Positions 10,013 through 54,371 are shown, counted from the first letter of the stretch. The stretch: 64,000 bases of DNA from Candidatus Levybacteria bacterium RIFCSPHIGHO2_02_FULL_40_18 (GCA_001782235.1 MFOC01000007.1:86799-150798), one strand, 5' to 3'. Made by a program: numbers and translations. Notes: generated by a model from the sequence alone, not told the origin.

Positions 10013-10121
10013 TTAGTTGTTAGAAATTAGAAAATGGTTATGGAAATTAGATGTTGGAAATTGGTTTTGGTTCAACTATTTTCCATTTCCCACTTTCTAT
10101 TACTATTTTCTATTCTCTAGT
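10013..10121. repeat. Heptamer-based quasi-palindromic spacer between ruvB and ruvA
   Basis: Purine-rich arm GAAATTA|GAAAATG|GTTATGG|AAATTAG|ATGTTGG|AAATTGG followed by the pyrimidine-rich arm CTATTTTCCATTTCCCACTTTCTATTACTATTTTCTATTCTCTAG. Confidence 0.7.
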
Positions 10122-10123
10122 GG

Positions 10124-10693
10124 CTATTTTCCTAAATATTTAAGTGCTGCCTTTATTTGCTCTTCAACGCTTGTAGCGCGATCAGTATTCCTTATTGCTT
10201 CATTTATTTCTTTTGTAGTAAATCCAAATGCTTTAAGGGCAGATACGAGTTCGTTTCTTTCTCCATTTGAAACTCCTGCCAAATCAAGTTCTCTACCGCC
10301 CACTTTATTTTTAAGTTCGATTATTATTTTTTGTGCATTTTTTGTCCCGAGTCTTGGAATTCCTGAGAAGAAAGTAACGTCAGCATCTATTATTGCCTTA
10401 GTAATTTCATCGCCTGTACCATTTGAAAAAATTGCAATCGCGGTCCTTGGGCCAACTCCCGGAACAGTGATAATTAATTCGAACAATTTAAGATCTGAAT
10501 ATTTTGAAAACCCGTAAAGCTCCAAGACATCCTCTCGAACATGAGTATATATGAATAATTTCAAATTCGAACCAATCGAAATAGAGGAGAGAACATCCGA
10601 GGCCGCATGAGTTTTATATCCAACTCCATTAACATCAATTATTAAATATGGATCATCCCGAATTATTGCAGAACCAGAAAGGTAACCTATCAT
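10124..10693 (-). CDS. ruvA: Holliday junction DNA-binding protein RuvA
   Basis: MIGYLSG.., HhH motifs VPGVGPRTAIAI and IPRLGTKNAQKIIIEL. Confidence 0.9.
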   Translation of the reverse strand: MIGYLSGSAIIRDDPYLIIDVNGVGYKTHAASDVLSSISIGSNLKLFIYTHVREDVLELYGFSKYSDLKLFELIITVPGVGPRTAIAIFSNGTGDEITKAIIDADVTFFSGIPRLGTKNAQKIIIELKNKVGGRELDLAGVSNGERNELVSALKAFGFTTKEINEAIRNTDRATSVEEQIKAALKYLGK

Positions 10694-10729
10694 GAAGCAA
10701 CTCGATTATACCACAGGATTTTTGTATGT

Positions 10730-11215
10730 TTATGCTGAGCGAAGTCGAAGCGAAAATGCGCAGGTAATGGCGCAGGCGAGAGCATCGACTGTATCGTCTG
10801 GTTTTGGTATCGAAGGCAAATTCAAAAGCATTTTTACCATTTTCCCCATCTGATCTTTTTGCGCCCTACCATATCCTGTTATTGCTGTTTTTACCTGGAG
10901 CGGGGTATAGGAAAAAACTTCCAGTCCCAAATCGGCTGCCGTTACTATTACAACTCCTCTTGCTTGCCCAACGATTAATGCTGTCTTTGCGTTCGTATTA
11001 AAAAACAATTCCTCAACCGAAAGCGCTTGAGGTTTGTGTTCTTTGATAATTCGAACAAGCTCCTCGCGAATTATTTGCAAACGACGCTCAATAGGTAAAT
11101 CGGCTCTTGTCTCAATACAACCAAAGCTTTTGGCTGTTAGCTTTTGGCTGTTATCTTTTTCGACGATGCCCCATCCGGTACGGGCAATCCCCGGATCCAC
11201 CCCCAAAATTATCAT
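10730..11215 (-). CDS. ruvC: Holliday junction resolvase RuvC
   Basis: IILGVDPGIARTGWGIV.., ..YTPLQVKTAITGYGRAQKDQ.., DDTVDALACAI. Confidence 0.9.
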   Translation of the reverse strand: MIILGVDPGIARTGWGIVEKDNSQKLTAKSFGCIETRADLPIERRLQIIREELVRIIKEHKPQALSVEELFFNTNAKTALIVGQARGVVIVTAADLGLEVFSYTPLQVKTAITGYGRAQKDQMGKMVKMLLNLPSIPKPDDTVDALACAITCAFSLRLRSA

Positions 11216-11249
11216 ATTGGTTATAAGATTATATACGATTGTAGATTAT

Positions 11250-11690
11250 TTAAAGTGTGTTGATTGTAATTTTTCCGATTTTTTTAGGAAGCCGCCGATC
11301 TAGAGTGATAAAAATGCCCGCACCGGATTCAAGCGCTGAAGCAAGATGAATAGCATCAGGAGTTCGAACACTTGGAAAATTTGCTCTTATCCAGGCGGCT
11401 CGGCGAGCAACGTTTCTGTCAATATCTTTAACCGTGAATAATCCTCCCCCAGTAATAAATTCTTCATAATAACCAATATCTTTTGAAAAATCATCTTTAT
11501 AAAAGTAGACCAAAAATTCCTCAAAAACCAGCGCTGAGATAAAAACCTGGGGGCTTGCCTGCTTAATTTCTTCTAAAATTCTTTGCGCTTTTTCCCCCAG
11601 TGGATTAGGTTTGGTGTATGCGTTGAATGCGGAAATAAATATATTACTATCAAGTGCTAAAATTTGCGAGGGCAAAATTCGATTACTCAT
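11250..11690 (-). CDS. PIN-domain toxin (VapC-like)
   Basis: ILALDSNIFISA.. and ..PDAIHLASALESGAGIFITLD; start moved to the ATG at 11690 (MSNRILPS), giving the typical 8-nt overlap with the antitoxin stop. Confidence 0.75.
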   Translation of the reverse strand: MSNRILPSQILALDSNIFISAFNAYTKPNPLGEKAQRILEEIKQASPQVFISALVFEEFLVYFYKDDFSKDIGYYEEFITGGGLFTVKDIDRNVARRAAWIRANFPSVRTPDAIHLASALESGAGIFITLDRRLPKKIGKITINTL

Positions 11691-11931
11691 CCCATGAACT
11701 TCTTTCTTCTTCAAGATATTTTAGAGGATCTACCCCTTTCCAGGGGTTTTTTAGCTTCTTATAGTAATCCTGGGGCCAGTTGAGTTTTTCTTCAAGGGTA
11801 GGGCGGGTTAATATAATCTGCTCTCCTGCCACGTGAACATTCATCTTCTGGCCGGGTTTAATATTGGCTTTCTTCCGTATCTCTTTTGGAATTACTATTT
11901 GATATTTTGTACTAACAAGTGTTTGATTCAT
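11683..11931 (-). CDS. AbrB/MazE/SpoVT-type antitoxin (VapB-like)
   Basis: TKYQIVIPKEIRKKANIKPGQKMNVHVAGEQIILTRP; start taken at the internal ATG (MNQTLVS). Confidence 0.7.
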   Translation of the reverse strand: MNQTLVSTKYQIVIPKEIRKKANIKPGQKMNVHVAGEQIILTRPTLEEKLNWPQDYYKKLKNPWKGVDPLKYLEEERSSWDE

Positions 11932-12003
11932 AATCGTATTACATTTTACATAATCGTAAAACAAAAGTCAACCCCAAAAATTATCATGCAGACTATTATC
12001 GCA

Positions 12004-12030
12004 ACTAGTGACTAGACACTAGCTACTAGA
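12004..12030. repeat. CTAGTGA-type heptamer array
   Basis: ACTAGTGACTAGACACTAGCTACTAGA; same word family as 17512-17546. Confidence 0.5.
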
Positions 12031-12039
12031 ATTTCTTAC

Positions 12040-12215
12040 GGCCTAAAACCTTCGCCAATTGGAGCGGAGTGCATGAGAAATGAACGAGCGTAGAGGGGGA
12101 CCCCTCACGAACTTGATGAGGAGGGGGAATGGTATCCCCCGCTAGTGAGTGAAATTTCGAAAGCACGAGTACCACTGGCGAGAGCTTTTGGTTCTTTTGT
12201 CGGCACAAAAGAATA
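12040..12215. ncRNA. Candidate structured RNA (unassigned family, strand unresolved)
   Basis: Locally GC-rich island in a divergent intergenic region. Ends pair: TCGCCA 12052-12057 with TGGCGA 12176-12181, GTGC with GCAC. Internal hairpins GAGGG-GGAC-CCCTC and GGGGGA-ATGGTA-TCCCCC with alternative pairings. 9-bp hairpin TTCTTTTGT-CGGC-ACAAAAGAA. No plausible ORF. Confidence 0.3.
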
Positions 12216-12224
12216 AGAGATAAA

Positions 12225-12252
12225 TTGACACTAAAGTATGCTATTGTATAAT
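12225..12252 (+). promoter_or_regulatory. Promoter of 12262..13359, near-leaderless
   Basis: TTGACA-16-TATAAT, 9 nt between the -10 box and the ATG. Confidence 0.55.
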
Positions 12253-12261
12253 ACTGTATAA

Positions 12262-13359
12262 ATGGAAAGACCGATACTTACGATAGCTCAGGCAGCAAAA
12301 TTATTGCAAGTTGATCCGAATACTATTTATCGCTGGGCCAGAGCGGGTAAATTTCCGGCGTCAAAGATCGGAAAAGAGTGGCGAGTACTTCGCTCTGACG
12401 TTATCAAGTTTGTAGAAAGTAAAAAATCGCGAGATCAGTTCCTGACAGAAAATCAAGAGGCTGAGCTTATTACAGCCTTAGTAGGAAGACGCGAAATTCC
12501 ATTAAAGTTCGAATATCTAGGAGAAGGGGCAGATAAATATGTTGCCATATCAGCACCAGAAATTGGGGGAGGTTCTGAAACAGAAATAATTTCAAACTAC
12601 AAAGGCCGTTTTTCAGATTTTTTAAAGAGTAAAAAATTTAACTTAGTGGACATTGGTTCAGGAGACGGGAAAAAAGCAGCGTTTGTTATTTCTCATGTTG
12701 CTAAAACCGTTTCCTCATATTCAGGGCTTGATATTTCAAAGCGGATGCTTGATCTTGCAGGGCAAACGATGCAGATTTCACACCCCGACTTAATGTATGA
12801 GAGATTCATTGAGGATTTTGAACATGGTAGTATTTCTAATGCTACCTATTATCTCAATCGGAGATATCAGAATAATAATTTAATTCTATTCTTAGGTAAT
12901 ACTATTGGAAATGTCTCCGATGCGCATCGTATTCTCATTAATCTTAGAGACGGAATGAGCGATCAGGATCTTTTATTGGTTGGGTTAGCATTCTATAACC
13001 CTCGAAATATTCCGCTTTCGACATATAACAGGAAGGTTGTCATCGATATGTTTTGGACTATTCCTGAAAAAATAGGCATAGAACGGGGAGATGCAAAAAT
13101 ATCGTGGATTTATAATGAGCATTTAAGGCAGGTAGAGTGCCAGCTTGAATTTGTACGCGGTTGGAGCAAGATTTTCGGGGGAAATCTGATTCGGTTTGGT
13201 AAAGGACAAAAGATAAGACTCGCCATCTCAAGAAGATTTACTAAAGATAATATTTTTGAACTTTTTGCCAAAGCTGGTTTTAAAATTGAGATCTTTGTTC
13301 ATGATAAAGATAATGCTTTAGTTTTATGCCGACCTCATGACTGGGAGAAAAGAATCTAA
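12262..13359 (+). CDS. Fusion: excisionase/MerR-type HTH + EgtD-like (histidine N-alpha-methyltransferase family) SAM methyltransferase
   Basis: N-term LTIAQAAKLLQVDPNTIYRWARAGKFPASKIGKEWRV; C-term LVDIGSGDGKK, YSGLDISKRML, LILFLGNTIGN, LLLVGL, ..FTKDNIFELFAKAGFKIE, colinear with EgtD-type enzymes. Confidence 0.6.
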   Translation: MERPILTIAQAAKLLQVDPNTIYRWARAGKFPASKIGKEWRVLRSDVIKFVESKKSRDQFLTENQEAELITALVGRREIPLKFEYLGEGADKYVAISAPEIGGGSETEIISNYKGRFSDFLKSKKFNLVDIGSGDGKKAAFVISHVAKTVSSYSGLDISKRMLDLAGQTMQISHPDLMYERFIEDFEHGSISNATYYLNRRYQNNNLILFLGNTIGNVSDAHRILINLRDGMSDQDLLLVGLAFYNPRNIPLSTYNRKVVIDMFWTIPEKIGIERGDAKISWIYNEHLRQVECQLEFVRGWSKIFGGNLIRFGKGQKIRLAISRRFTKDNIFELFAKAGFKIEIFVHDKDNALVLCRPHDWEKRI

Positions 13360-13988
13360 TCTGTTAGTTCGGCGAGGGAGTGGATTGTTTTTATCTTAGG
13401 ATCTGATTCGTCTGATTTCCTATTGATCCAAATAACGTCTACGAATTTTTGAAGAACCTCTACAACATCGTGTTTGTTATCTATGAACGTTGCCTCGCGA
13501 GGCAACAGTTCTATTGCCTCATCCGAAAGTTTTCTTTTGTGTATAAAAATATATTCGGGAGAAAAGTAGTCTCGTAATTCTGCCGCGTCAAGCTTTCTAT
13601 TTTGCAAATCGCGATTTCCCTGAGAAAAAATTCCAAGAATTTTTTCTCCTTTTAGTTTTTCCAGAACTTCCCGAGCCTCAGGGTAGAGTGAATTTTTATA
13701 TATATCGGTATCCTCCCAAAAAACCCGATCAAGAGGCGCCACATCTTTTCCGAATCTATCTGAAAGGTAGGCTGTTATCCCACGCGGATCAAAGTCGGTT
13801 CTTTCTGAAAGTTTCGAATAATAATCCGCATTTGCACTAATTAATTCTTCTTCAGAAATCCCCAAGATTTTTACAAATTTTGTGCGAATTAGCTTGCCGA
13901 ATTTTTCAGGATCAAAAATGACGCCATCTATGTCAAACAAAATTAACCCCGTTACAAGTTCGTTCCTAGAAGCGTAGGAGCTATCCAT
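13356..13988 (-). CDS. HAD-superfamily hydrolase
   Basis: Motif I LFDIDGVIFD; motif ..GIFSQGN..; 210 aa. Confidence 0.7.
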   Translation of the reverse strand: MDSSYASRNELVTGLILFDIDGVIFDPEKFGKLIRTKFVKILGISEEELISANADYYSKLSERTDFDPRGITAYLSDRFGKDVAPLDRVFWEDTDIYKNSLYPEAREVLEKLKGEKILGIFSQGNRDLQNRKLDAAELRDYFSPEYIFIHKRKLSDEAIELLPREATFIDNKHDVVEVLQKFVDVIWINRKSDESDPKIKTIHSLAELTD

Positions 13989-17492: not shown

Positions 17493-17511
17493 ATGATTGT
17501 ATTATAGACAA

Positions 17512-17546
17512 CCTAGTGACTAGTTACTAGCCACTAGTGACTAGTT
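17512..17546. repeat. CTAGTGA heptamer array upstream of dnaA
   Basis: CTAGTGA|CTAGTTA|CTAGCCA|CTAGTGA|CTAGTTT. Confidence 0.6.
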
Positions 17547-17553
17547 TGATGTC

Positions 17554-25057: not shown

Positions 25058-25170
25058 TAATTCAAAACTCAAAAGTCAAAAGTTAAAAATTAAAGTTAAA
25101 ATTTAAAAGTGTTTTTAATACTTTTTACTTTTGAATTGCAATTTTGAATTTTGCATTTTGACTTTTAACT
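25058..25170. repeat. Heptamer-based quasi-palindromic spacer (CAAAAGT word family)
   Basis: CAAAACT|CAAAAGT|CAAAAGT|TAAAAAT|TAAAGT.. then the complementary ..ACTTTTG|AATTGCA|ATTTTGA|ATTTTGC|ATTTTGA|CTTTTAA; fills the whole VirB4 / upstream-gene gap. Confidence 0.7.
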
Positions 25171-25812: not shown

Positions 25813-25880
25813 AATCGATATAGAAATTGGTTGTAGGATTTCCATTACTAATTTCCATTTTCCAATAACTATTTTCTAGT

Positions 25881-32260: not shown

Positions 32261-32659
32261 TTATTTGAATTCAGGGAGGGTGAGGATCTTGAGATTTCTT
32301 AGGTCTCCAAGTCCAAGAGCCTGAAGCACAACATTTATAATGACAAAAGAAAGAGCTATTATAATAAGACCTATTACTGCGGCAATTATATGATTTCTTG
32401 CATCTGCAACTTTTTGTTTGTCTCCGCCTGATGTGATCCACTGAAATGCCCCAATGACTATAAAAAGAAGTGCCGCCAAAAAGGCTATAACTATTATAAA
32501 GGCAACCAAAAACCCTACCACTTGGCCAATGGTTGTTTCAGGAGGAATAACAGTTGCGCCCGCGGGAGTTTTGACTCCGGCATCTATCGCGGCAAAAGCA
32601 GGTGCGGCAAGTGAGGAATAAGAAATTAGAGCGAAGGCACCTGATAATATCTTTCTCAT
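32261..32659 (-). CDS. VirB2/TrbC-type T4SS pilin paralogue 2
   Basis: 132 aa; signal peptide ..SSLAAPAFA; GAFQWITSGGDKQKVADARNHIIAAVIGLII. Confidence 0.7.
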   Translation of the reverse strand: MRKILSGAFALISYSSLAAPAFAAIDAGVKTPAGATVIPPETTIGQVVGFLVAFIIVIAFLAALLFIVIGAFQWITSGGDKQKVADARNHIIAAVIGLIIIALSFVIINVVLQALGLGDLRNLKILTLPEFK

Positions 32660-32698
32660 AAATTAATTAGAGCATGTTTCAAACCCTTTGTCAATAGT

Positions 32699-33034
32699 CT
32701 ATGGATTAACAACTGTTTTAACACCAAACGCGCCTGCTACGAGATTTACAAAGACAAGCGCCAATGACATAACTATTAATCCAAATATCGCATAGATAAC
32801 TATTCTTCTTGCTTTATCCCATTTTTGCTTGTCCCCGGACGCTTGTAGCCAATAAAAACCCCCATAAACAATATAGAATAGAGAAAGAAAAATTCCAATA
32901 ATTAGCGCTAGTTGAATGAAAAAAGATGCAATATTGCCTATTGTAAATTGAGGTCCGGTAGGAATACCGGGAGGCGCCTCAATATCAACTTGGCCTCCGC
33001 CTGAACCCGGTACTTTTAATGATAAATATCTCAT
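32699..33034 (-). CDS. VirB2/TrbC-type T4SS pilin paralogue 3
   Basis: 111 aa; GGFYWLQASGDKQKWDKARRIVIYAIFGLIV. Confidence 0.65.
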   Translation of the reverse strand: MRYLSLKVPGSGGGQVDIEAPPGIPTGPQFTIGNIASFFIQLALIIGIFLSLFYIVYGGFYWLQASGDKQKWDKARRIVIYAIFGLIVMSLALVFVNLVAGAFGVKTVVNP

Positions 33035-33168
33035 ATTAGAAATTGGTTATTAATAATTAGAAAATAGTTCAGAAATTAGAAATTAGAAATTGGTTCTTGA
33101 TTTTTAACTATTTTCTATTCTCTATTTTCCATTACCATTTTCCATTCTCCTATAACTATTTTCTAATA
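33035..33168. repeat. Quasi-palindromic heptamer spacer (GAAATTA/GAAAATA family), orientation A
   Basis: Arms of about 62 nt, about 70% complementary; core 33084-33135 is the perfect reverse complement of 34625-34676. Confidence 0.8.
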
Positions 33169-33171
33169 TAT

Positions 33172-34530
33172 TTAGCGGGTGATTCCTGGTATTTTCAAAA
33201 TATCAACTCCTATTATCTCAAGTATAACAATTGAGAAAATGATGAACAACAATCCTACGACTGCAGAAGTTATCGTTTCCCTTGCTCCTGCGATTTTCTC
33301 TTTATCCCCTCCTGACGTTATTAATATATAGCCTGAGTAGATTATTATTATGATTGCCCCAAATCCCGCAATTGTTAATATAAATCTAAAAATTGTCTCA
33401 ATGAATCCTTTTGGAGTGACATTAATTGGTCCGATTGCCGAATTTATGGTTTTACAGTCACCAGGGCGAAGATTAATATCACCTTCCCCACTTCCACAAG
33501 GCAGTATTGCACCGGGAGCAACCTTATTTAACGCCGCAAGGTCTTTAAGAAAGGTACGATACTCCTCGCCTTTGGGATCTTGTCTATAATGCAGGGGATC
33601 ATCACATGTTCCACCTTCCTTATTATTAGCTGATGTGATTATGCATGTTGCTTCATAATATGTAAATCCACCTTTACAACCAGGTGGGTTTGGAACTGAA
33701 GGAAATACGCTGACGCTTACCCAAGCCCATGCGGTTGGGTTATCATCATCAACCTGTTCTCTTACAGTTATTGTGTATTTTCCAGCGGAAAGTTTTTGAA
33801 ACTCAATTCTTTTTCCACTCTCATTCTCGCTCGTAAAGGCAAGACATCCTCCCTGTCGGTAACCATTGTTTCCAATCATCAAAATTTGGTAGTTATTCCT
33901 TCTCCACCCTCCAGGCCTGAACGAATTATTAATGGCATTGCCTAGATTTACGGTGATTGTTGCGCCAGGTCTCAAGTCTGTACCAGGATAGATTGATAGA
34001 GAAGGATAAGTTCTATGAACATAAAAACCTCCTATTTTAATTGGTTTGTAATAGGCATCTTTTATTAGGGTTCCGATACTCAGCGCATAGACATTCCCAC
34101 CATGAAAATAGACAGTGCCACCACAGTCAGTTTTGACCTTGCTACTTCCTGCTCCGCATACCCCCTTAACAGTTACATTGCCTTTGCTATCTGATTTTAG
34201 CCCTAAGATAAAATTGTCCAATATATCTGGGCCGTTTATCCCAGGTACAAATCCTTCTTCTCTAAGACATGCGCTGTCTCCCGTACAAATTATATAACCA
34301 GACTTATCACTCTCAAGTCCATAAAAAGTAATATCAATTATTTTATCTGCTTCATCAAGACATTCAGGTCGCTCGCTTGTTGAAAATTCAACGTCTGTTC
34401 CCTCAAGAATTGTCTCAGTGGGAGAAGGACTTGTCTGACATGGATCAAGCTGGGCAAAAGCAGGAGTTTTGAAAAGTAAAAATATCGCGGCGAAGAGGAA
34501 GGACGCGGTTAATATAAGAAGCTTCTTCAT
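33172..34530 (-). CDS. Secreted Cys-rich protein with a C-terminal T4SS-pilin domain (candidate pilus adhesin)
   Basis: Start taken at MKKLLILTASFLFAAIFLLF (signal peptide). About 380-aa domain with >14 Cys. C-terminus IIIIIYSGYILITSGGDKEKIAGARETITSAVVGLLFIIF has the same motif as the three short pilins. Confidence 0.65.
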   Translation of the reverse strand: MKKLLILTASFLFAAIFLLFKTPAFAQLDPCQTSPSPTETILEGTDVEFSTSERPECLDEADKIIDITFYGLESDKSGYIICTGDSACLREEGFVPGINGPDILDNFILGLKSDSKGNVTVKGVCGAGSSKVKTDCGGTVYFHGGNVYALSIGTLIKDAYYKPIKIGGFYVHRTYPSLSIYPGTDLRPGATITVNLGNAINNSFRPGGWRRNNYQILMIGNNGYRQGGCLAFTSENESGKRIEFQKLSAGKYTITVREQVDDDNPTAWAWVSVSVFPSVPNPPGCKGGFTYYEATCIITSANNKEGGTCDDPLHYRQDPKGEEYRTFLKDLAALNKVAPGAILPCGSGEGDINLRPGDCKTINSAIGPINVTPKGFIETIFRFILTIAGFGAIIIIIYSGYILITSGGDKEKIAGARETITSAVVGLLFIIFSIVILEIIGVDILKIPGITR

Positions 34531-34572
34531 ATATTTATGATAGGCAGAAGGAGTAGGGGAAGTCAACATCCG

Positions 34573-34722
34573 CTAGAAATTAGTTATTAATAATTAGAAA
34601 ATAGTTGTTGGAAAATGGAAATTAGTAATGGAAAATAGAGAATAGAAAATAGTTAAAAATCAAGAACCAATTTCTAGTTTCTAATTTCCGAACCATTCTC
34701 TAATTTCCCATAACTACTTTCT
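34573..34722. repeat. Quasi-palindromic heptamer spacer, orientation B (inverted relative to 33035-33168)
   Basis: 34625-34676 is the exact reverse complement of 33084-33135; right arm 34666-34698 is the reverse complement of 36073-36105 (1 mismatch). Confidence 0.8.
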
Positions 34723-34723
34723 G

Positions 34724-36040
34724 CTACTCTGTGAGTTTGTAGCCGCGGCCTTTTATGGTTTGGATAGAATTAGGATTATTGGGATCATCTTCTATTTTCT
34801 TTCGTAAGCGATAAATTATTTGATCAAGGGCTTGGTCTGTTACACCTTCTTGAGTTTTAGTGTCTTTCCAGACATTTGAGATTATTTCGTCTTTTTCACA
34901 TACCCGCCCTTGGTTTTGAAGCAAAAATCTAAGTAGTCTAAACTCCTGCGGAGAAAGAATTTCGGTTAAGTTTTGATCTCCCTTGAGGATCTCATTGCGC
35001 TCCTGATCATAAGACAATCTTGGGGAGGTGGGGGTTAAAGTTTTTAGGTATGTGTCGAACAATGGAATAACGAGTTTGCCATCACGGGTTAGTCCTGCCT
35101 TTTCTAAAAATTCATTTTTATTATTTGCTTTTATATCCTTCTTTTCTTCCGGTGTCAGGAAATTCCATATCTCTGAAAGCGCGCTCCTAACCTGTGGTTT
35201 TAACAGTAAGACTTCGGATAATCGGCTGTTGGCTGTTGGCTGTTGGCTATTGGCCAGGGTAGCTTCATAACAAATTCGTGCGAGTTTTCCGTGGCCGCCG
35301 GTCAGTTTTATAATTTCACTTTTAATTCTTTCATCAGCCGACTTTCCCGAAATTTCTTCAAGATGCTTGAATCGAAATTCTAGTCCCACCTTATCATAAA
35401 GCGAAAGATATACTATGTTACCGATTAAAAACTCAGAGAATTCGGCATAAATAGAAGATTCTAAAACCTCCTCGATTGGACGCGTTATGCCAAAAACAGC
35501 AGTAAATCTATACTTTGCGCGGTTTCGAAGAATCTTTAAGTTAAGAAAAAAGGAAGAGTCAATATTTTGTACATATTCCTCAAAACGGTCCAGCAGAAAA
35601 ACAATATTTAATTCGCATTCATTTGCAAGATAGTCTATAGCTTTTTTTAAGTTTTGAGAAAAGACCATCTCATCGGAGAATTTAAGAGCGTCTGAGAGAA
35701 ATTTATTAACAACCGACTCTTCTTCTTTTAATCTTCTTTCGCCAAAAGAGGAAGCAATAGAGATTAAGATAAATTTTAATATGTCGGAAAGGGACCTTTT
35801 GGCTACTTCTGAGAAGTCCATATAAACAAAATGATAAGAAGATTCCCTTTTACCTAAGTGGAGCTCCCGGACCGTTCTATTATAAGGAAGTAAACGAAGC
35901 GCGTTGCTTTTCCCTGTGCCCGGTAGCCCAATTACCTGACAGGATTTGCCCGATGATACGAATTCGATAATTTTGGCGATCTCAGCCTTTCTTGTTTCTT
36001 TTGGGTATAGGCTCTCAAAATGAGAAGGCTCGATAATCAT
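34724..36040 (-). CDS. AAA/P-loop ATPase fused to an OmpR/PhoB-type winged-helix DNA-binding domain
   Basis: Walker A VIGLPGTGKSNAL, Walker B-like IVFLLDRFEEY; C-term LSPQEFRLLRFLLQNQGRVCEKDEIISNVW..ALDQIIYRLRKKIEDDP..IQTIKGRGYKL. Confidence 0.7.
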   Translation of the reverse strand: MIIEPSHFESLYPKETRKAEIAKIIEFVSSGKSCQVIGLPGTGKSNALRLLPYNRTVRELHLGKRESSYHFVYMDFSEVAKRSLSDILKFILISIASSFGERRLKEEESVVNKFLSDALKFSDEMVFSQNLKKAIDYLANECELNIVFLLDRFEEYVQNIDSSFFLNLKILRNRAKYRFTAVFGITRPIEEVLESSIYAEFSEFLIGNIVYLSLYDKVGLEFRFKHLEEISGKSADERIKSEIIKLTGGHGKLARICYEATLANSQQPTANSRLSEVLLLKPQVRSALSEIWNFLTPEEKKDIKANNKNEFLEKAGLTRDGKLVIPLFDTYLKTLTPTSPRLSYDQERNEILKGDQNLTEILSPQEFRLLRFLLQNQGRVCEKDEIISNVWKDTKTQEGVTDQALDQIIYRLRKKIEDDPNNPNSIQTIKGRGYKLTE

Positions 36041-36103
36041 AGAAAATAGAAAATAGTTATTAGAAAATAGACAATGGTTCGGAAATTAGAAAATAGAAAT
36101 TGG
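36041..36103. repeat. Purine-rich arm flanking the four-helix-bundle gene
   Basis: AGAAAATAGAAAATAGTTATTAGAAAATAGACAATGGTTCGGAAATTAGAAAATAGAAATTGG; complementary in composition and words to 36490-36552. Confidence 0.7.
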
Positions 36104-36505
36104 TTAACGATCATGGTAATTCTTCCAAGATTTCTTAAGATTCGTTAGTTGCTTACAGGAGATTATATATAAATTTATGACTTCGTTGCAAAGTTTAGGA
36201 TCGACGTATTTACTATAAACATCTATGCATACTGATAAATGATTTATCATTTCGTAACATTCACCTATCGTATCATCTATATATTTACTCCATGCTTTTT
36301 TCTGATATCTTTTGGCAAACCCCTCAGCAAGTATGGCTGGTCCTGCTTTGCAACTACGTCTCATTTGATCAACAAGATCAAACTTCTCTTCCTTCGGTAG
36401 ATTAGTAATTATTTCCTTCAATACTGTGACCATTGCCTTATATAAATTTTGGTACACCTCAAGATCTTGAAAAGTTCTGATTGGCTTTTTCTTTCTATTT
36501 TCCAT
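36104..36505 (-). CDS. Four-helix-bundle protein (23S rRNA intervening-sequence protein family)
   Basis: ..IRTFQDLEVYQNLYKAMVTVLKEIITNLPKEEKFDLVDQMRRSCKAGPAILAEGFAKRYQKKAWSKYIDDTIGECYEM.. fits the family pattern; start moved to ATG 36505 because upstream codons are repeat words. Confidence 0.75.
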   Translation of the reverse strand: MENRKKKPIRTFQDLEVYQNLYKAMVTVLKEIITNLPKEEKFDLVDQMRRSCKAGPAILAEGFAKRYQKKAWSKYIDDTIGECYEMINHLSVCIDVYSKYVDPKLCNEVINLYIISCKQLTNLKKSWKNYHDR

Positions 36506-43168: not shown

Positions 43169-45673
43169 ATGAAATTACAAGGACTTTCGCAAAAAGTATT
43201 TTTGGATCGCTATTCTTTAAAAGATAAGAAGGGGAAGGCTCTCGAAAAAACCCCTGACCGCATGTGGAGGAGAGTGGCCGCGGCTGTTGCCGGTGTTGAG
43301 ACAACTTCCCAAAATAAGAAGCGCTGGGAAAAGGAATTTTATTCTGCGATGCAGGATTTTAAATATGTTCCCGGAGGAAGAATTTTGGCAGGCGCTGGGA
43401 CCGGTTTTGAAGTTACCTACTATAATTGCTTTGTAATTCCATCCCCCAAAGACTCACGTGAAGGGATTCTTGAAACCCTCAAGCAAATGGTAGAGATTAT
43501 GGCTCGCGGTGGGGGAGTCGGAATAAATCTTTCTTCCTTGCGACCGCGCGGGTTTCGCGTTGAAAAAGTAAACGGCTTCTCTTCAGGTCCCTGCAATTGG
43601 GCAGAACTTTTCTCCGTTGCAACAAAAGACATTATTCAACAGGGAGGTAGTCGCCGAGGGGCATTAATGCTTATGCTCTGGGATTGGCATCCTGATATTG
43701 AAGAATTTATTACTGTTAAACAAGATCTTTCCCGTATAAATGGCGCAAACCTTTCTGTCTGTGTTTCAGATTCTTTCATGGAGCAGGTTGAGCGCGATGG
43801 AGATTGGGACCTTGTCTTTCCGGACAGAAGAGATCCCGAGTATGATACAAAATGGGACGGAGATATATACACATGGCGTGCAATGGGCAAAAAGGTTGTA
43901 AAACATAAGACTATCAAAGCGCGCTACATGTGGGATCTAATTGCCGAGGCCGCCTGGAGATCTGCAGAGCCGGGAGTTGTCTTCATGGAACGATACAATA
44001 AACTGCACAATAATTGGTATTGGAACCGAATTAACTGCGTAAATCCATGCGGAGAGGAGGGCTTGCCGCCGTGGGGAGTTTGCAATCTTGGATCAATTAA
44101 TCTTTCAGCTCTTGTTCACGGCGATAATATTGACAAGAAGGGAAAGTTTGATTTTTCTCTACTTAAGAAAGTCACTCGGGCCGCTGTCCGATTTCAAGAC
44201 AATGTTATTGAAATGGATCCTTATATTTTTGATGGGATCAAAAAGACCCAATATGAAGGAGAAAGAAGAATAGGTCTTGGGACAATGGGTCTTGGAGATG
44301 CTTTGATTAAGCTTCATTTAAGATATGGGTCACCTGAATCCCTTCAGTTTATCGATCGCGTTTATAGAATTATAAGAGACGAGGCGTATAGGACCTCAGT
44401 TGAAATTGGCGCTGAGAAAGGATCTTTTGGAAAGTTTGACAAAAAACTTTATCCTCAGGGCAAGTTCATACAACTGTTGCCTGCTGATATTCAGAATGGA
44501 ATTAAGAAAAAAGGCATTAGAAATTCCATACTTCTTATGCAAGCGCCAACCGGGTCAACATCTCTTCTTGTTAATACAACCTCTGGAATTGAGCCGGTTT
44601 TTGAATTCGAATTTGTGAGGCGCGATAGAATAGGCGAGCATGTTGTCCGCCACTACTTATATGAACAATGGTATAAAAAACACGGCAAGGATATTGAGGC
44701 AGGCAAAATTGAGCGGCCCGATTTCTTTGTGTCGGCGAATGATCTGACGCCAGAAGATCATGTCAGGGCTCAGGCAATAATTCAAAAATATGTTGATGCA
44801 TCTATTTCAAAAACAGTTAATGCGCCTAATGCCCACACAGTTGAAGAAGTAAAAAAGCTTTACAACATGGCATACAAACTTGGTTGCAAAGGCGTTACAT
44901 ATATGAGAGAAGGATCCCGCGCAGGGGTCTTGGAACGCATAGATGATAAGAAGAAGGAAGAAGCTCCAAAGGTTGAAGTAAAAGCCCCACCGGTTACAAA
45001 GAGGCCGCCTGTTATGTATGGCTTGACTTACAAAACCCAAACGCCACTTGGAGACGCATTCATTACTATCAATAAAGATGAAGGAGGAAATCCCTTTGAA
45101 GCCTTTATAACCATTGGCAAATCAGGTTCTGATGTTGCTGCCATGACTGATGCTTTGGGCCGAATGATTTCCCTGACTCTTCGCCTTCAGAGTCCTATAC
45201 CGGCACGAGAACGCGTCAGACAGATTGTCGCACAGCTTTCGGGAATCGGCGGCATGAGAACAATCGGATTTGGAGAAAACAGGGTTCGGTCTGTGCCTGA
45301 TGCTGTAGCAAAAGTTTTAGCAGAGGAATTTGGATTTTCAGTCAACGGGATAGTTCGTGATCTAAAGACTTCGGAAAATACCGTAACAAACGGCCAGGTA
45401 GTTTCGGTATCGAATGGCGCAAACGGAAACGGAATTGTGGCAAAAACAAATGGCATCGTCACAAGTGCCAATGGTATAGCAAGTCCTGCGACTGCGCTAA
45501 ATGAATCGCAAAGCGAGGCGGCAGAGCAGACAGTTGTTATGGAACAATTAAGTATTGGGAGTGAGACCTCGACGCATAGCGCATTTGATTTTTGTCCCTC
45601 ATGCGGAGCAGCAACGCTCGCGCATGAAGAGGGATGCAAAAAATGCTATAGCTGCGGCTATAGTGAATGTTAA
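43169..45673 (+). CDS. nrdJ: Class II (adenosylcobalamin-dependent) ribonucleotide reductase
   Basis: 834 aa; ..GGGVGINLSSLRPRG.., ..NPCGEEGLPPWGVCNLGSINL.., ..APTGSTSLL..; C-terminal Cys4 finger CPSCG..CKKCYSCG. Confidence 0.9.
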   Translation: MKLQGLSQKVFLDRYSLKDKKGKALEKTPDRMWRRVAAAVAGVETTSQNKKRWEKEFYSAMQDFKYVPGGRILAGAGTGFEVTYYNCFVIPSPKDSREGILETLKQMVEIMARGGGVGINLSSLRPRGFRVEKVNGFSSGPCNWAELFSVATKDIIQQGGSRRGALMLMLWDWHPDIEEFITVKQDLSRINGANLSVCVSDSFMEQVERDGDWDLVFPDRRDPEYDTKWDGDIYTWRAMGKKVVKHKTIKARYMWDLIAEAAWRSAEPGVVFMERYNKLHNNWYWNRINCVNPCGEEGLPPWGVCNLGSINLSALVHGDNIDKKGKFDFSLLKKVTRAAVRFQDNVIEMDPYIFDGIKKTQYEGERRIGLGTMGLGDALIKLHLRYGSPESLQFIDRVYRIIRDEAYRTSVEIGAEKGSFGKFDKKLYPQGKFIQLLPADIQNGIKKKGIRNSILLMQAPTGSTSLLVNTTSGIEPVFEFEFVRRDRIGEHVVRHYLYEQWYKKHGKDIEAGKIERPDFFVSANDLTPEDHVRAQAIIQKYVDASISKTVNAPNAHTVEEVKKLYNMAYKLGCKGVTYMREGSRAGVLERIDDKKKEEAPKVEVKAPPVTKRPPVMYGLTYKTQTPLGDAFITINKDEGGNPFEAFITIGKSGSDVAAMTDALGRMISLTLRLQSPIPARERVRQIVAQLSGIGGMRTIGFGENRVRSVPDAVAKVLAEEFGFSVNGIVRDLKTSENTVTNGQVVSVSNGANGNGIVAKTNGIVTSANGIASPATALNESQSEAAEQTVVMEQLSIGSETSTHSAFDFCPSCGAATLAHEEGCKKCYSCGYSEC

Positions 45674-45699: not shown

Positions 45700-45838
45700 T
45701 AAGAGTATATATTTGGTAATCGCCGTGAAAGTCGGCGGAACTGCCGGTACTGTAATATCCAGAAAACAATATATACTTTCATCCCCGAGCAGGGTTAAGC
45801 GAAGAAGAATTCCTCTCGGGTTATCGAGAGGTTTTTTT
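45700..45838 (+). promoter_or_regulatory. Candidate cis-regulatory RNA leader (cobalamin-riboswitch-like core + terminator/antiterminator) ahead of the adenosyltransferase gene
   Basis: Closing helix AGTATATATT(45703-12)/AATATATACT(45768-77). Inside, CGCCG-UGAAAGU-CGGCG and ..CUGCCGGUACUGUAA resemble the GGUG..AA.UCC hairpin and CCCGCCACUGUAA core of B12 elements. CCCGAG (45784-89) can pair with CUCGGG in the terminator. Confidence 0.3.
45812..45838 (+). terminator. Intrinsic terminator
   Basis: CCTCTCG-GGTTAT-CGAGAGG followed by TTTTTTT. Confidence 0.75.
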
Positions 45839-48486: not shown

Positions 48487-48501
48487 CCGCGTTTGACGCG
48501 G
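48487..48501 (-). terminator. Hairpin immediately after ssrA
   Basis: Minus strand CCGCGT-CAA-ACGCGG, followed by a second palindrome GCTTCG-CA-CGAAGC. Confidence 0.4.
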
Positions 48502-48854
48502 TGGAGATGGGGGGCTTTGAGCCCCCGTCCAAAAAAGCATCTATAAAAACATCTACAAGCTTATTCAATTATTTATTGTCATCATGCAAACTCCAATTGA
48601 AAGGATTGAACATGACTAAGATTTAAATTGTTCGAACAAAATCTAAATCGGAACTTTGTCTATATCCAAACTTTGTTTATGCCCATATCTGATCGTTTGG
48701 AAAAATCTAGATATGAACACCAGTTTAAGCTACTGCGTAGCTGTAGGCCGGACTAACATTTCTGTTAGCATTTATTTTTGATACATTTTTACGATTAGTA
48801 TCATTATCGGCTTGCAGTTTTTAAAGAGCAATTCTGTCGATGCAATGCATCCCC
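48500..48854 (-). ncRNA. ssrA: tmRNA (SsrA)
   Basis: 5' GGGGATGCATTGC.., 3' ..GGACGGGGGCTCAAAGCCCCCCATCTCCACC; internal tag frame GCT AAC AGA AAT GTT AGT CCG GCC TAC AGC TAC GCA GTA GCT TAA = ANRNVSPAYSYAVA*. Confidence 0.9.
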
Positions 48855-48874
48855 AATGAGGCTATTATAGCACA

Positions 48875-49312: not shown

Positions 49313-49325
49313 CAATCCATTATAT

Positions 49326-49516: not shown

Positions 49517-49525
49517 CAATGGAGT

Positions 49526-51295: not shown

Positions 51296-51298
51296 GCT

Positions 51299-51535
51299 CT
51301 ATAAGAATAGCACCGCAAAGAATAATAACGCAACTGTTGCCAGAAGATGTACGAGCGTAAAAACAATAAAGATGGGTGAGAATGTTATTTGATTTATAAT
51401 TCTGTTTAAATTCCTAATCTGTAAAAAAAGAATTAGTGCAAAAAGGCCGTATATAGAGATCAATATAATCAGAATGATTCTGAAAAGAGCATCCTGATTG
51501 GAAAAGATCTTAAGAAAAAAATTAAATATTTCCAT
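51299..51535 (-). CDS. Small two-TM membrane protein
   Basis: 78 aa, hydrophobic. Confidence 0.45.
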   Translation of the reverse strand: MEIFNFFLKIFSNQDALFRIILIILISIYGLFALILFLQIRNLNRIINQITFSPIFIVFTLVHLLATVALLFFAVLFL

Positions 51536-51581
51536 AAATTAGAGATCCCGATTTTCATCGGGGTGATCTCATTTCGCCCGG

Positions 51582-52217
51582 TTACTTTAGTGGCTTTCTT
51601 CCTATCATCTCGGCAATAATTTGAACAATTCTGGCCGGTTCCGGCGCGCGGTCAAACTCAAAGTTTGCTTGAGTCGCCGCGGTTTGTACTAACACGTCCC
51701 CATAATTAAATACTGATCTTACAGCTCCGACTTGTGAGTAAGAAACGTCCTCGATAAGATTAATTTTTGTTTCACTGGCGTGCTTAAAAAGAATACCTGA
51801 AACATCAAGATCAATGATTCTTTTGTTAGTTACAAGACCTACATTAAAATACCAAATAGTAAACTCAACCAAAATGAATCCGGCCACAACAAGATAATAA
51901 AAAAGGACCGAAACTACTTGAGTTTGTATGGCAATCTGGAAAAAGGGAGAAAACAAATCGTTGAAAAGAAAAAGGAGCGGAGGAATAAAGATTAATATCA
52001 GAGCGGTAAGAATCCAAGGGACATTGGTTATGAGATCTCGTCTTACGAGAAGCATTATTTCTTCATCTCCCTCCTGATTTTCAAACACTACATTATCGGG
52101 ATTGATTCCAAGCGAGGAATAAAAGTGGACGGATTTTTTGTGGGAAGGTTCTGGTGTACCTTGCGGTATCCGTTCTGAAATAACGAATTCACCACTAAGA
52201 CCATTTTCCCCTGGCAT
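51582..52217 (-). CDS. Membrane protein with a bacterial PH-like (YdbS/T-type) domain; paralogue of 59153..59938
   Basis: Two TM then ..FTIWYFNVGLVTNKRIIDLDVSG..YGDVLVQTA..FEFDRAPEPARI. Confidence 0.5.
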   Translation of the reverse strand: MPGENGLSGEFVISERIPQGTPEPSHKKSVHFYSSLGINPDNVVFENQEGDEEIMLLVRRDLITNVPWILTALILIFIPPLLFLFNDLFSPFFQIAIQTQVVSVLFYYLVVAGFILVEFTIWYFNVGLVTNKRIIDLDVSGILFKHASETKINLIEDVSYSQVGAVRSVFNYGDVLVQTAATQANFEFDRAPEPARIVQIIAEMIGRKPLK

Positions 52218-52234
52218 AATGAGATTATTATATC

Positions 52235-52322
52235 AGAAATAGAATAGCTAAATGGCTATAATGGTTAAAATAGTTCTGGCTCGAAAAACTATTCTAGCTT
52301 ATTCTAACTATTCAACTATTTG
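52235..52322. repeat. Quasi-palindromic word-repeat spacer (ATAGAAT/ATAGCTA family)
   Basis: AGAAATAGAATAGCTAAATGGCTATAATGGTTAAAATAGTTCTGG / CTCGAAAAACTATTCTAGCTTATTCTAACTATTCAACTATTTG. Confidence 0.55.
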
Positions 52323-52328
52323 ATCTTT

Positions 52329-54053
52329 TTATTGGCGTTCTACATTGAATAGTGGACCGACGATTTGAATATTTGCCGGGGCTCTGAGATTAAACCAGTT
52401 TTTAAATTCATCACCTGAAAAACTTTGTGATCCGCCGTCCCCCAAGATACCTACAGAAGTTGTTCGGCCAGCCGAAAAATCTGCTCCAATAGAAACGTCT
52501 GAGATATTTGAAAAAGGAGTTACTCCTCGATTTGAGAGCTCTTGCCGAACGCGAGCTTCATCCCATGTATCGGTACCCGCAGGATTTGGCTTATCAGTTT
52601 GATAAAGATGCTCTCCAGCGGATGAGTCAGCTTTTGCAAGCAAGATCACATTCATAATGTCTGCTACTTCAGAAGATTTAAGCCAGGCGGTTTTATTATA
52701 CTCTGATCGAGACCCCCAATCGCAATAAAACCACGGAGATTCGCGATCATAGGCATTTGAAAAAAGATCAGAGAATCCCGAGGCCGCGCCTGTTGTTGTA
52801 TCTATTGCATGTTTTGTCCAAGAGGTCGCGCTCCAGCCTGGAAGTTCTGACGTCGATAAAATATATCCGCCGTGAGTTGAAGAGTACCAAGCCTTAATTG
52901 GCGATCCGCCCTGAACCATGACCCAGCCGCGCGTGCTGTTCACTGCCTCTTCCCATGCGCCGCCTTTAGGTTCGGGTTTAAAGACCTGACAGGATTGAGT
53001 GGTGCAAATAGATCCCGCTCCATTGTTTGTATAAGAAAGAGCATAGGAGCGAGCGGCCACAGCCTGAGCTTTTAAGGCTTCCATTGCAAATGATGAAGGC
53101 ATTTCATAAATTCTTTTTACGTACTCCTCGATATTATAAGAGCCGTATCCCTCAACATTAATATTTATATCTTGGGAGTAATCTTTTTTCAGTTCGTAAT
53201 TTACATAATATGCTTCAAGGATTTGTTCTGCAGACTGTCCGGCGCGGGCTCTTCCGTCCGCTCCATATTGATTAAGACCGGTTCTGTTTGGGACGCCGTA
53301 GGTGAAGAAGGCGATTCTGGGAGAAAATCCCGGATCGCGGGTTCTATCATCAACACAGGCAGGAGCCGCGGTCGCGGCAGATCTTGGAATGTTTAATGCG
53401 GCAAGCCTTTGACCTAAAATTTCTTTTTGGCGGGCAGATAACTTTGCAATTTCACTTGACAATGTTGCTTGATATGCTTTTGCGCCCTTTACAACTTTTT
53501 CGATTTCTCCCTTTTCCTGTGCAAGCCTTTCTTTAATGCTCGCAAATTTTATTTCTTCCTCTTCAAGTTTTGCTTTTCGCGTTTCAAGATCAACAATCTT
53601 TAATGCAATGGAGGTTATCGTTTCTTTATCGCGGTCAGCATCTCTTTTTTGATAAATAATGATTCGAGTCATTTCAGCAGCATCTGCCTGGGAAATAAAG
53701 ACGAGAAGAGGGGAGAGAAAATAGCTTTTTATGTAGTAGTCGCGGACGGTTTTATTAAAAATAATTTTACTCTCTTCAAGCTCTTGATAGCCTTGTTCAA
53801 TGAATTTCTTCTTTTCTGCCAAATCGCGCTCAATTGCGGCAACCTGATTTTCTATACCTGTAAGTTGTTTTTGCAAGCTATTAAGTTGTGATTCAAGGGG
53901 TGCCGTTGCTTTTTGAGAGGCAGAAAGCGCTGCCTGAAGTTCGGTCAGTTTTTTATTGATATCGTCAAGCTCATCAGAGAAAACTTGAGGAACAACAAAA
54001 AGTTTGAACGCGAACAAAATACCCACAAGGAGGAGCAAGAAAAATCTTCCCAT
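52329..54053 (-). CDS. SpoIID/LytB-domain protein with an N-terminal coiled coil
   Basis: ..EALKAQAVAARSYALSYT..CTTQSCQVF.. ..AWYSSTHGGY..; signal/TM + about 200-aa coiled coil. Confidence 0.75.
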   Translation of the reverse strand: MGRFFLLLLVGILFAFKLFVVPQVFSDELDDINKKLTELQAALSASQKATAPLESQLNSLQKQLTGIENQVAAIERDLAEKKKFIEQGYQELEESKIIFNKTVRDYYIKSYFLSPLLVFISQADAAEMTRIIIYQKRDADRDKETITSIALKIVDLETRKAKLEEEEIKFASIKERLAQEKGEIEKVVKGAKAYQATLSSEIAKLSARQKEILGQRLAALNIPRSAATAAPACVDDRTRDPGFSPRIAFFTYGVPNRTGLNQYGADGRARAGQSAEQILEAYYVNYELKKDYSQDININVEGYGSYNIEEYVKRIYEMPSSFAMEALKAQAVAARSYALSYTNNGAGSICTTQSCQVFKPEPKGGAWEEAVNSTRGWVMVQGGSPIKAWYSSTHGGYILSTSELPGWSATSWTKHAIDTTTGAASGFSDLFSNAYDRESPWFYCDWGSRSEYNKTAWLKSSEVADIMNVILLAKADSSAGEHLYQTDKPNPAGTDTWDEARVRQELSNRGVTPFSNISDVSIGADFSAGRTTSVGILGDGGSQSFSGDEFKNWFNLRAPANIQIVGPLFNVERQ

Positions 54054-54096
54054 CGGAAATTCTATTATAGCAGATGTTATAGGTGCGAGAGAATTA

Positions 54097-54190
54097 TGGG
54101 TGCGCTTGGATTCGAACCCCGTACAAAACTTACTTGTTCCCGAGGCTTACAGCCTCGCGTCACAAGAGCGTTTCTACGGGGCAAGCCAAA
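54097..54190 (-). other. tRNA-like remnant / structured element (not a foldable canonical tRNA)
   Basis: Contains CGAGG-CTGTAAG-CCTCG (GTA anticodon-like hairpin) and GGGGTTCGAATCC, but the T-stem has two G.A mismatches, there is no GG D-loop and no acceptor pairing. Instead CCCCGTA(5')/TACGGGG(3') pair. Confidence 0.3.
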
Positions 54191-54198
54191 GACATCTG

Positions 54199-54269
54199 TA
54201 GGCCCGGAAGGAGTCGGACCTTCGTGTCGACTTTATAAGAGTCGTGTCCTACCGTTGAACGACGGGCCT
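54199..54269 (-). tRNA. tRNA-Ile (anticodon TAT), atypical
   Basis: AGGCCCG/CGGGCCT acceptor (A1:U72), D-arm GTTC-AACGGTA-GGAC, CGACT-CTTATAA-AGTCG, 4-nt variable loop, T-arm GAAGG-TCCGACT-CCTTC (C at position 55). Confidence 0.65.
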
Positions 54270-54335
54270 AAAAATTTCTAAAACGCTTGCTTATTATACC
54301 AATACTGGGGTTAAACTTGAAGCCGACAAGTGGTT

Positions 54336-54371
54336 ATACCTTAATACTTTATACTTGATACTGAATACTTA
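54336..54371. repeat. ATACTTN heptamer array abutting the stop of 54372..56789
   Basis: ATACCTT|AATACTT|TATACTT|GATACTG|AATACTT. Confidence 0.55.

Follow-up and report, generated by a model that had tools for sequence, protein, structure and literature searches.

Heptamer-repeat hairpins in the gene spacers of a Levybacteria genome, probable copies of an element resembling ribosomal intervening sequences

Introduction

Cyanobacterial short tandemly repeated repetitive (STRR) heptamers have been known since 1990. Like the intervening sequences (IVSs) of ribosomal RNA (rRNA) genes and the large PF05635 'IVS protein' family, they have had no prior explanation. Here we describe gene spacers made of a purine-rich array of 7-nt words, a short loop and a complementary pyrimidine-rich arm, found in a 64,000-nucleotide stretch (the window) of the genome of Candidatus Levybacteria bacterium RIFCSPHIGHO2_02_FULL_40_18 (GCA_001782235.1, MFOC01000007.1:86799-150798). 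Our preferred interpretation, to which we assign a probability of about 0.6, is that these spacers are copies of an IVS-like selfish palindromic element of ∼ 125-130 bp, mostly without an open reading frame (ORF); in one copy a PF05635 gene occupies the loop.

In the 23S rRNA of Coxiella the IVS is a selfish element whose terminal inverted-repeat stem is cut by RNase III and whose loop carries an S23p (PF05635) ORF; its 5′ part holds heptameric repeats, two or three depending on the strain, immediately ahead of the start codon of that ORF (PMC4990558). PF05635 ORFs and short IVS-type insertions also occur in rRNA genes of the Candidate Phyla Radiation (CPR) (PMC11270868). STRR heptamers able to form hairpins lie between hupS and hupL in several cyanobacteria, with unknown function (PMC2670836), and in Haemophilus influenzae the 5′ untranslated region (UTR) of hmw1A holds an (ATCTTTC)n array that forms a long hairpin cleaved by RNase III (PMC12721329).

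With rRNA IVSs (Coxiella burnetii, Leptospira; PMC4990558) the elements described here share a terminal-inverted-repeat stem, a PF05635 ORF in the loop, purine-rich heptamers before the start of that ORF and the existence of short ORF-less forms, and IVSs too are regarded as selfish. They differ in lying between protein-coding genes or in 5′ UTRs, in a stem that consists of heptamer words throughout and in their many copies per genome. The 7-bp tandem units, the hairpin potential, the position between co-transcribed genes and the high variability between close relatives are shared with STRRs (PMC2670836); the phylum (here Candidatus Levybacteria, CPR) and the words (here TRGWWAW) are different, and the elements here form a ∼ 130-nt family with defined ends. 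An earlier reading of this DNA from its sequence alone (the sequence-only reading) had likened the spacers to STRRs, aptly in view of the hupS–hupL hairpins and of the Nostoc PF05635 genes with similar arms described below. The hmw1A hairpin (PMC12721329) is likewise a transcribed heptamer array that pairs with a complementary purine-rich arm, but it is a single phase-variable locus, pyrimidine-first and changing in repeat number, whereas the elements here are dispersed, purine-first and invariant in the assemblies compared. If our interpretation is right, heptamer-repeat stems, sometimes with a PF05635 gene, have colonized the mRNA spacers of a CPR genome instead of its rRNA.

Results

Periodicity and folding

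Two further loci, L136 and L133, continue the same genome beyond the window ends (18 kb), giving 82 kb in all. Within the window, Tandem Repeats Finder (TRF) located period-7 arrays at 25062-25166, 33035-33150, 34611-34688 and 42567-42688, where it caught both arms of the hairpins at 25058-25170, 33035-33168, 34573-34722 and 42566-42690, and single arrays only at 36039-36079, 36492-36537, 41371-41412, 17513-17545 and 54334-54371. Lag-7 autocorrelation was positive in 50 windows of the sequence and in none of each of five shuffles. The purine words have the consensus TRGWWAW, and a run of three in-phase words is found at 12 places in the window but nowhere in 100 shuffles.

As RNA, each strand of the elements at 10013-10121, 33035-33168, 34573-34722 and 42566-42690 folds as a long imperfect hairpin (z −4.3 to −7.5), and none of 200 shuffles was as stable. 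The fold of 25058-25170 is stable on the plus strand (z −4.6; minus strand −1.45), and that of 41351-41478 gives z −2.6 and −3.8. A purine-rich array followed by a short loop and a pyrimidine arm, beyond what shuffles produce in both periodicity and folding, is present at 7-8 junctions. For 33035-33168 the minimum free energy structure has 42 pairs, close to the 44 of 62 complementary positions counted in the sequence-only reading. That reading had also held that at least nine junctions are filled almost exactly from stop codon to start codon. The elements at 41351 and 42566 cover only part of spacers of 370-380 nt, and membership of 52235-52322, a weak short hairpin of AATAGTT-type words in the SpoIID / bPH_2 gene spacer, is doubtful: its fold is marginal (z −2.4 and −3.8) and neither TRF nor an nhmmer search with the family model (below) detects it. 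Together they account for about 1.6% of the window.

One repeat family with recent copies

An nhmmer profile of ∼ 130 model positions recovers seven full-length copies and four partial ones, the latter being the two arms of a split cassette (below), a lone arm at 25846-25880 and L136:2390-2491. The seven full-length copies align over ∼ 130 nt; GTAAT / ATTAC marks their centre, and the loop varies. Thirteen aligned copies have a mean column identity of 75% and conserved ends, AGAAAWTAGTT...AACTAWTTTCT, which constitute terminal inverted repeats.

The elements E10, E33, E34, E41 and E42 are all full-length. E10 (10008-10131; 98.9 bits, model 3-129; z −5.3, −4.3), a TRGAAAW-family hairpin, fills the spacer from the ruvA stop to the ruvB start, both genes being assigned by Pfam. 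E33 (33035-33168) lies between a gene for a 465-aa pilin-like protein and a 111-aa type IV secretion system (T4SS) pilin gene, and E34 (34573-34722), in which the full-length copy (34596-34723) is joined by a 23-nt extra palindromic end, between a Trans_reg_C gene and the 465-aa gene. E41 (41351-41478) is likely to form part of the 5′ UTR of a 537-aa gene (39722-41335, minus strand), and E42 (42566-42690; z −7.5, −7.1) part of that of nrdR. E41 is ∼ 87% identical to a copy at L136:6265-6383 (X6265), and E42 ∼ 88% identical to one at L136:744-888 (X744). The lone purine arm at 25846-25880 (minus strand), five TRGWWAW words in the PrgI-like to TraC-like spacer, had not been reported by the sequence-only reading and does not fold (z +0.5).

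Dispersed TRGAAAW copies share 85-90% identity and stand in either orientation. E33 matches the reverse complement of E34 at 115 of 130 positions, so that both orientations occur inside one operon. The pairs E33/reverse-complemented E34, E41/reverse-complemented X6265 and E42/X744 each keep the same irregular order of word variants across 110-130 nt. These are recent copies of one repeat family. A 22-mer said to be shared by three elements indeed stands at 34631 and 41388 on the plus strand; its third copy is at 33108 on the minus strand, not at 33106.

Beyond the window the TRGAAAW family has three elements (L136:744-888, 2390-2491 and 6265-6383). A second word family, CAAAAGT / ACTTTTG, forms the TRF-detected hairpin at 25058-25170, a 51-nt inverted repeat with 75% complementarity between the TraC-like stop and the VirB4-like start, and another at L136:7914-8062; a small ATGGTTA hairpin lies at L133:16993-17055. 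Counting all word types, the 82 kb hold ∼ 14 heptamer-array elements, a local density of about one per 6 kb. Five of these ∼ 14 lie in the 13.5 kb around the T4SS-like genes, so the concentration there that had been suggested is not significant. The sequence-only reading had named equal complementarity in shuffles, lack of a 7-nt period and absence from the rest of the genome as outcomes that would speak against it; we found stems that shuffles do not match, a clear 7-nt period and further members outside the window. Its idea of a dispersed family resembling MITEs (miniature inverted-repeat transposable elements) also describes how these hairpin-forming arrays behave.

In the natural register 85% of cells are paired, compared with 24-54% in slid registers. 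The RNAalifold consensus adopts a shifted register, and the repeats are therefore able to pair in several registers. All hairpins of this genome, like those of its closest relative, are purine-first. A rule that the purine arm stands 5′ on the mRNA strand had to be dropped, because a purine–loop–pyrimidine palindrome reads alike on both strands; the purine-first bias remains. No Rfam family matched the elements at gathering or E-value thresholds.

The same junctions in relatives

For seven junctions, the orthologous sites in three syntenic Levybacteria served for comparison: L128, L130 and L132, whose Trans_reg_C orthologues are 78%, 62% and 63% identical to that of the window. The Trans_reg_C to 465-aa gene spacer measures 154 nt in the window, 53 nt in L128 and 34 and 40 nt in L130 and L132, with no hairpin in the relatives; the spacer between the 465-aa gene and the pilin gene shrinks from 137 nt to 3 nt in L128 and 1 and 2 nt in L130 and L132. 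Hairpin-free orthologous junctions are thus 1-53 nt long, versus 137-154 nt in the window, and the spacers orthologous to the lone arm at 25846-25880 have 14 and 10 nt. At the TraC to VirB4 junction the window has the CAAAAGT hairpin, L128 a GCACGAA hairpin and L132 only 2 nt. The nrdR 5′ UTR holds a TRGAAAW hairpin in the window, a CAAAGTT hairpin in L128 and no heptamer array in L130 and L132; between nrdJ and nrdR there are 12 nt in the window and an extra hairpin in L128. In 21 kb of each of L130 and L132, TRF found no array of period 7, 14 or 21.

Since the hairpins are absent at the same junctions of syntenic relatives, they are lineage-specific insertions and not conserved regulators. 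The gene-to-gene fit emphasized in the sequence-only reading is explained by insertion into spacers of 1-50 nt: the elements sit in spacers that were once only a few bases long.

A Rifle-aquifer Candidatus Levybacteria metagenome-assembled genome (MAG), GCA_001782635.1, and its sister assemblies also carry the region. Loci from at least six distinct assemblies and samples agree at 99.99-100% over the elements, with one indel and two mismatches somewhere along the compared DNA, and where they overlap they show no copy-number differences; because they are so nearly identical to the window, these loci carry no information on repeat dynamics. This near identity speaks against a phase-variable contingency locus, whose repeat number would vary within and among populations.

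Further afield, a degenerate 24-nt pattern matched at least 120 loci in species-representative genomes; like a scan of viral contigs, this search provides examples and not a census. Among the matches listed, ∼ 35 are from Patescibacteria and the rest mostly from Bacteroidota, Acidobacteriota, Planctomycetota and Chloroflexota, and most of these foreign arrays are single-armed. Array strand showed no relation to gene strand among the 120 foreign loci listed, as judged by crude ORF calls. Full-length relatives (64-79 bits) were found in MAGs labelled Saccharibacteria, Patescibacteria, Levybacteria, TA06 and 'Gammaproteobacteria' (L108, L101, L036, L107, L072), weaker paired forms in Acidobacteriota and Bacteroidales, and short versions, some of them tandem, on IMG/VR contigs. 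One such contig (L154:3540-3765) has three tandem TGGAAAT/ATTTCTA short hairpins in one spacer, each of them repeating the CTCCTT junction that lies beside a gene start. In a Clostridia MAG (L127:2255-2560, reverse strand) a pyrimidine-first TGGAAAA-type hairpin is nested in an outer hairpin of GGGGCGA heptamers.

A PF05635 gene enclosed by the stem

The arrays at 36041 and 36490, which the sequence-only reading had paired, do belong to one unit, a family element whose loop has been replaced by a PF05635 gene; the enclosed gene had been missed. On the minus strand the nhmmer match runs from 36548 to 36463 (model 5-87), is followed by a 133-aa ORF and resumes from 36111 to 36047 (model 65-130). 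A promoter-like site (36581-36552) precedes the 5′ arm (36463-36552), which is purine-rich on this strand. The gene itself (36104-36505; 23S_rRNA_IVP / four-helix-bundle, S23p; Pfam E 3e-15, PDB 2GSC E 5e-4) has its start ATG among the final purine words and its stop codon at the edge of the pyrimidine-rich 3′ arm (36041-36111), which extends from there to the ATG of the Trans_reg_C gene. A dN/dS of 0.04 against L128, with synonymous sites saturated, indicates strong purifying selection on the protein. The cassette is present in L128; in L130 and L132 it is missing, arms included. The arms also mislead annotation by creating false starts and ORFs (36532 GTG, 36481 TTG, 10017 TTG), as the sequence-only reading had recognized: the peptide MENGNRYLK belongs to a GTG-start extension, ORF 36104-36532, and the second peptide quoted there to a TTG ORF at 10017-10517.

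The enclosing stem is not peculiar to this locus. The 16 close homologues inspected, which share 62-85% identity and come from metagenomes and MAGs, sit in unrelated gene contexts; in every one the gene is preceded by an arm of purine heptamers and followed by a pyrimidine arm. Arm words vary by locus (TCGAAAA, TCAGAAA, TGGAAAC), yet agree between the two arms of each, and by word counts they covary across cassettes (rho 0.47, p 0.002). Alignment scores for own versus foreign arms were weak, because all word sets cross-pair, and were replaced by these counts. A 29%-identical paralogue in L276 has TAGCGTC / GACGCTA arms, whose words are similar to those of the CTAGTGA array (below). L276 (665-1033 and 2501-2905) is a single Microgenomates T4SS-pilin operon with two PF05635 cassettes that have unlike arm words; PF05635 cassettes lie among pilin genes both there and in the window.

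In PLSDB the PF05635 protein matched cyanobacterial plasmids only (22 records). Seven of the 11 plasmid genes inspected are flanked by significant complementary purine/pyrimidine heptamer arms; two others have direct arrays on both sides, one a partial arrangement and one none. In 50 kb of the Nostoc punctiforme plasmid pNPUN01, the only armed genes among 33 complete coding sequences are the two PF05635 genes (annotated as four-helix-bundle), with arm scores of z 8.2 and 15.1, all other coding sequences scoring 1.7 or less. A Pseudanabaena galeata plasmid (L286:1-933) carries a PF05635 gene between cas6 and cas4, with 14 direct AAAAGCT repeats upstream and 10 AAAAGCC repeats downstream. Stems of this architecture thus enclose PF05635 genes, and do so specifically, both in CPR bacteria and in cyanobacteria, which suggests that STRRs, rRNA IVSs and the PF05635 family are facets of one kind of element. 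Among the papers searched, none links PF05635 genes outside rRNA with heptamer arms or STRR arms with PF05635 genes, and none turned up in a full-text search for the word strings, although an earlier description may exist.

Transcription context

E41 (TTGACA-18-CATACT, 41520-41491, minus strand) and E42 (TTGACA-17-TACTAT, 42483-42511, plus strand) each have a promoter-like site upstream, as does the cassette; the remaining elements are intercistronic. Inside the elements only weak promoter matches (9/12) occur. None of the four terminator-like sites in 32600-43200 falls within an element, so the elements do not qualify as intrinsic terminators, which have a G+C-rich stem and a trailing T tract. 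A Shine-Dalgarno-like motif precedes only 5 of 63 genes (window, L004, L133 and L136), and in many a TATAAT box stands 6-12 nt ahead of the ATG, which suggests that initiation is mostly leaderless or independent of Shine-Dalgarno sequences.

Discussion

We propose that the elements spread, in either orientation, into very short spacers and 5′ UTRs of the Levybacteria chromosome, where they would be co-transcribed with the flanking genes. The RNA would fold as a regularly mismatched stem of ∼ 50 bp that, by analogy with the rRNA IVS and the H. influenzae hmw leader, may be cut by RNase III, as the sequence-only reading had also suggested. Such a cut would set the cistrons apart and free the mRNA of the IVS protein. 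The host probably tolerates rather than needs the elements. They break up tightly coupled genes, and the organism makes little use of Shine-Dalgarno sequences, so that processing of these transcripts would affect the expression of core genes (ruvAB, nrdR, pilins). For the copying step, only one candidate partner emerged, the PF05635 protein. We speculate, with considerable doubt, that PF05635 proteins are dedicated partners of heptamer-repeat hairpins, the gene riding in the loop of the stem and the protein binding, protecting or helping to copy stems, and that ORF-less hairpins, STRRs and CPR spacers included, are non-autonomous derivatives. If this were true, a widespread class of mobile elements without a transposase would span rRNA IVSs, CPR operons and Nostoc plasmids.

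Several observations weigh against the selfish-element interpretation. The PF05635-carrying element is one of ∼ 14 in 82 kb, the rest being ORF-less. The association holds when one starts from the gene but not when one starts from the arms: PF05635 genes are not enriched near the arrays of the 120 pattern-matched foreign loci listed, where an iterative HMM search found only one such gene, far from the array. No element is in rRNA, and the 82 kb contain no rRNA gene; the elements are therefore not IVSs in the strict sense. Element ends are fuzzy, the flanks of E10, E33, E34, E41 and E42 show no consistent target-site duplication, and no transposase is among the genes called in the 82 kb. Covariation or compensatory change in ORF-less copies did not exceed shuffled controls, the variable second word position (A/G versus T/C) changing independently between the arms, so that nothing shows pairing itself to be selected. 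Finally, two junctions hold hairpins of unlike word families in the window and L128, which fits turnover in place equally well as repeated insertion.

Such turnover is the core of the alternative that survives best, although we consider it improbable: the arrays would have grown where they stand, replication slippage expanding the words and intrastrand template switching making the inverted complement, as immobile by-products of mutation. Strict 7-nt periodicity with many unrelated word families is what slippage would leave, as are the fuzzy ends and missing duplications, and single-armed arrays are common elsewhere among the matches listed. Unlike hairpins at the same junctions of the window and L128 would need no repeated insertion, and arm-to-arm copying would explain why both arms switch words together from cassette to cassette. 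What growth in place does not predict is that unlinked copies share an irregular order of word variants (115 of 130 positions in E33 and inverted E34), that full-length homologous copies exist in other MAGs, and that copy number is constant across the six or more assemblies/samples.

A role as host regulatory RNA is less probable still. Here the hairpins would act as processing sites, attenuators, stabilizers or translational-coupling devices under selection at given operon junctions. They do fold stably and lie, in transcribed positions, immediately ahead of start codons; for STRR hairpins a part in transcript stability or translational coupling has been proposed (PMC2670836), and the hmw leader hairpin regulates expression (PMC12721329). 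However, relatives that keep the gene order lack them at these junctions, and the hairpins occur in either orientation inside one operon, show no covariation, contain no terminator-like sites and adjoin functionally unrelated genes (ruv, nrd, pilins, sugar metabolism). The attenuators or insulators envisaged in the sequence-only reading are not supported as conserved devices, the hairpins being missing at orthologous junctions and their copies lacking compensatory changes.

Ordinary MITEs, that is, deletion derivatives of insertion sequences moved by a transposase that binds terminal inverted repeats, would account for the conserved ends, the dispersal in both orientations, the presence/absence between relatives and the TA on both sides of E33, but we think this very unlikely given that E10, E34, E41 and E42 have no consistent target-site duplication (E33 is the only one of the five elements with TA on both sides), that the 82 kb contain no transposase gene, that the sole ORF-bearing form encodes a 133-aa four-helix-bundle protein and not a transposase, and that the whole element, not its ends alone, is built from repeats.

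More generally, MITEs, repetitive extragenic palindromic (REP) sequences and bacterial interspersed mosaic elements (Correia, Nezha, REPIN) are likewise small non-coding repeats that form hairpins in intergenic DNA, have many copies and vary between relatives; the elements here differ by the missing target-site duplication and by the lack of a transposase or REP-associated tyrosine transposase gene in the 82 kb. REP/REPIN sequences are GC-rich, 20-40 nt long and often doublets, whereas these elements are AT-rich, 110-150 nt long and 7-nt periodic, with an ORF form that encodes PF05635. TAACTGA repeats of Beggiatoaceae, cyanobacteria and Bacteroidetes (PMC4679880) also stand directly upstream of start codons, contain stop codons in all frames and have a patchy phylogeny, but they are nearly all direct (169 direct sets versus one indirect), without paired arms, and no associated ORF has been reported. 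TIGR-Tas arrays (tandem interspersed guide RNA) alternate 8-12-nt edge and loop repeats with 9-nt spacers (∼ 36-nt unit) beside a Nop-domain Tas gene (PMC12045711). A TIGR array was ruled out here by the 7-nt period, the single dispersed hairpins and the lack of a Nop-domain gene in the window.

Additional features of the window

Two of the other word sets in the sequence-only reading proved to be direct arrays, the third, CAAAAGT, forming a hairpin. CTAGTGA arrays lie at 12004 and at 17512, the latter (17513-17545 by TRF) upstream of dnaA; a 13-bp stem at 17505-17552 (z −3.5) arises because the word is nearly self-complementary. The ATACTTN heptamers at 54334-54371 (54336 in the earlier reading), found by TRF, form no hairpin (z +1.3, +1.2) and are not family members. 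TRF also reported heptamer or 14-mer arrays inside ORFs: the Trans_reg_C gene has GGCTGTT (35224-35254), ruvC has AGCTTTTGGCTGTT (11125-11159) and the 537-aa ORF has AATAAAG at its 5′ end (41282-41317).

The window comes from a CPR bacterium and not from a cyanobacterium, which the sequence-only reading had missed. Its genes include ruvCAB, dnaA-dnaN, nrdR with a class II ribonucleotide reductase (RNR), four PF18895 T4SS pilins, VirB4-like and VirD4-like ATPases, a DUF5667 gene and tmRNA (48499-48854, minus strand). The region ∼ 1-6500 is a strain-variable island beside tRNA-Asn, in which other assemblies of the same population (L005, L137, L138) have P4 cII-like, Beta_protein and HigB/HTH toxin-antitoxin genes. 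GC-rich segments in two divergent spacers (12042-12190 and 41525-41670) fold with z of about −4 on both strands and match no Rfam family even at E ≤ 1; the second is missing from the shorter orthologous spacers of three relatives. They may be small RNAs of no known family or another small inserted element.

Around nrdR, ACACTAWAT-type palindromes flank the promoter (42466-42540) and are kept in all four Levybacteria; they resemble NrdR boxes. An adenosylcobalamin (AdoCbl-II) riboswitch lies directly after the class II RNR gene (45704-45777, plus strand). In L128 (1-3208) the RNR gene carries an intein with a LAGLIDADG_3 domain, whereas the gene in the window is intein-free.

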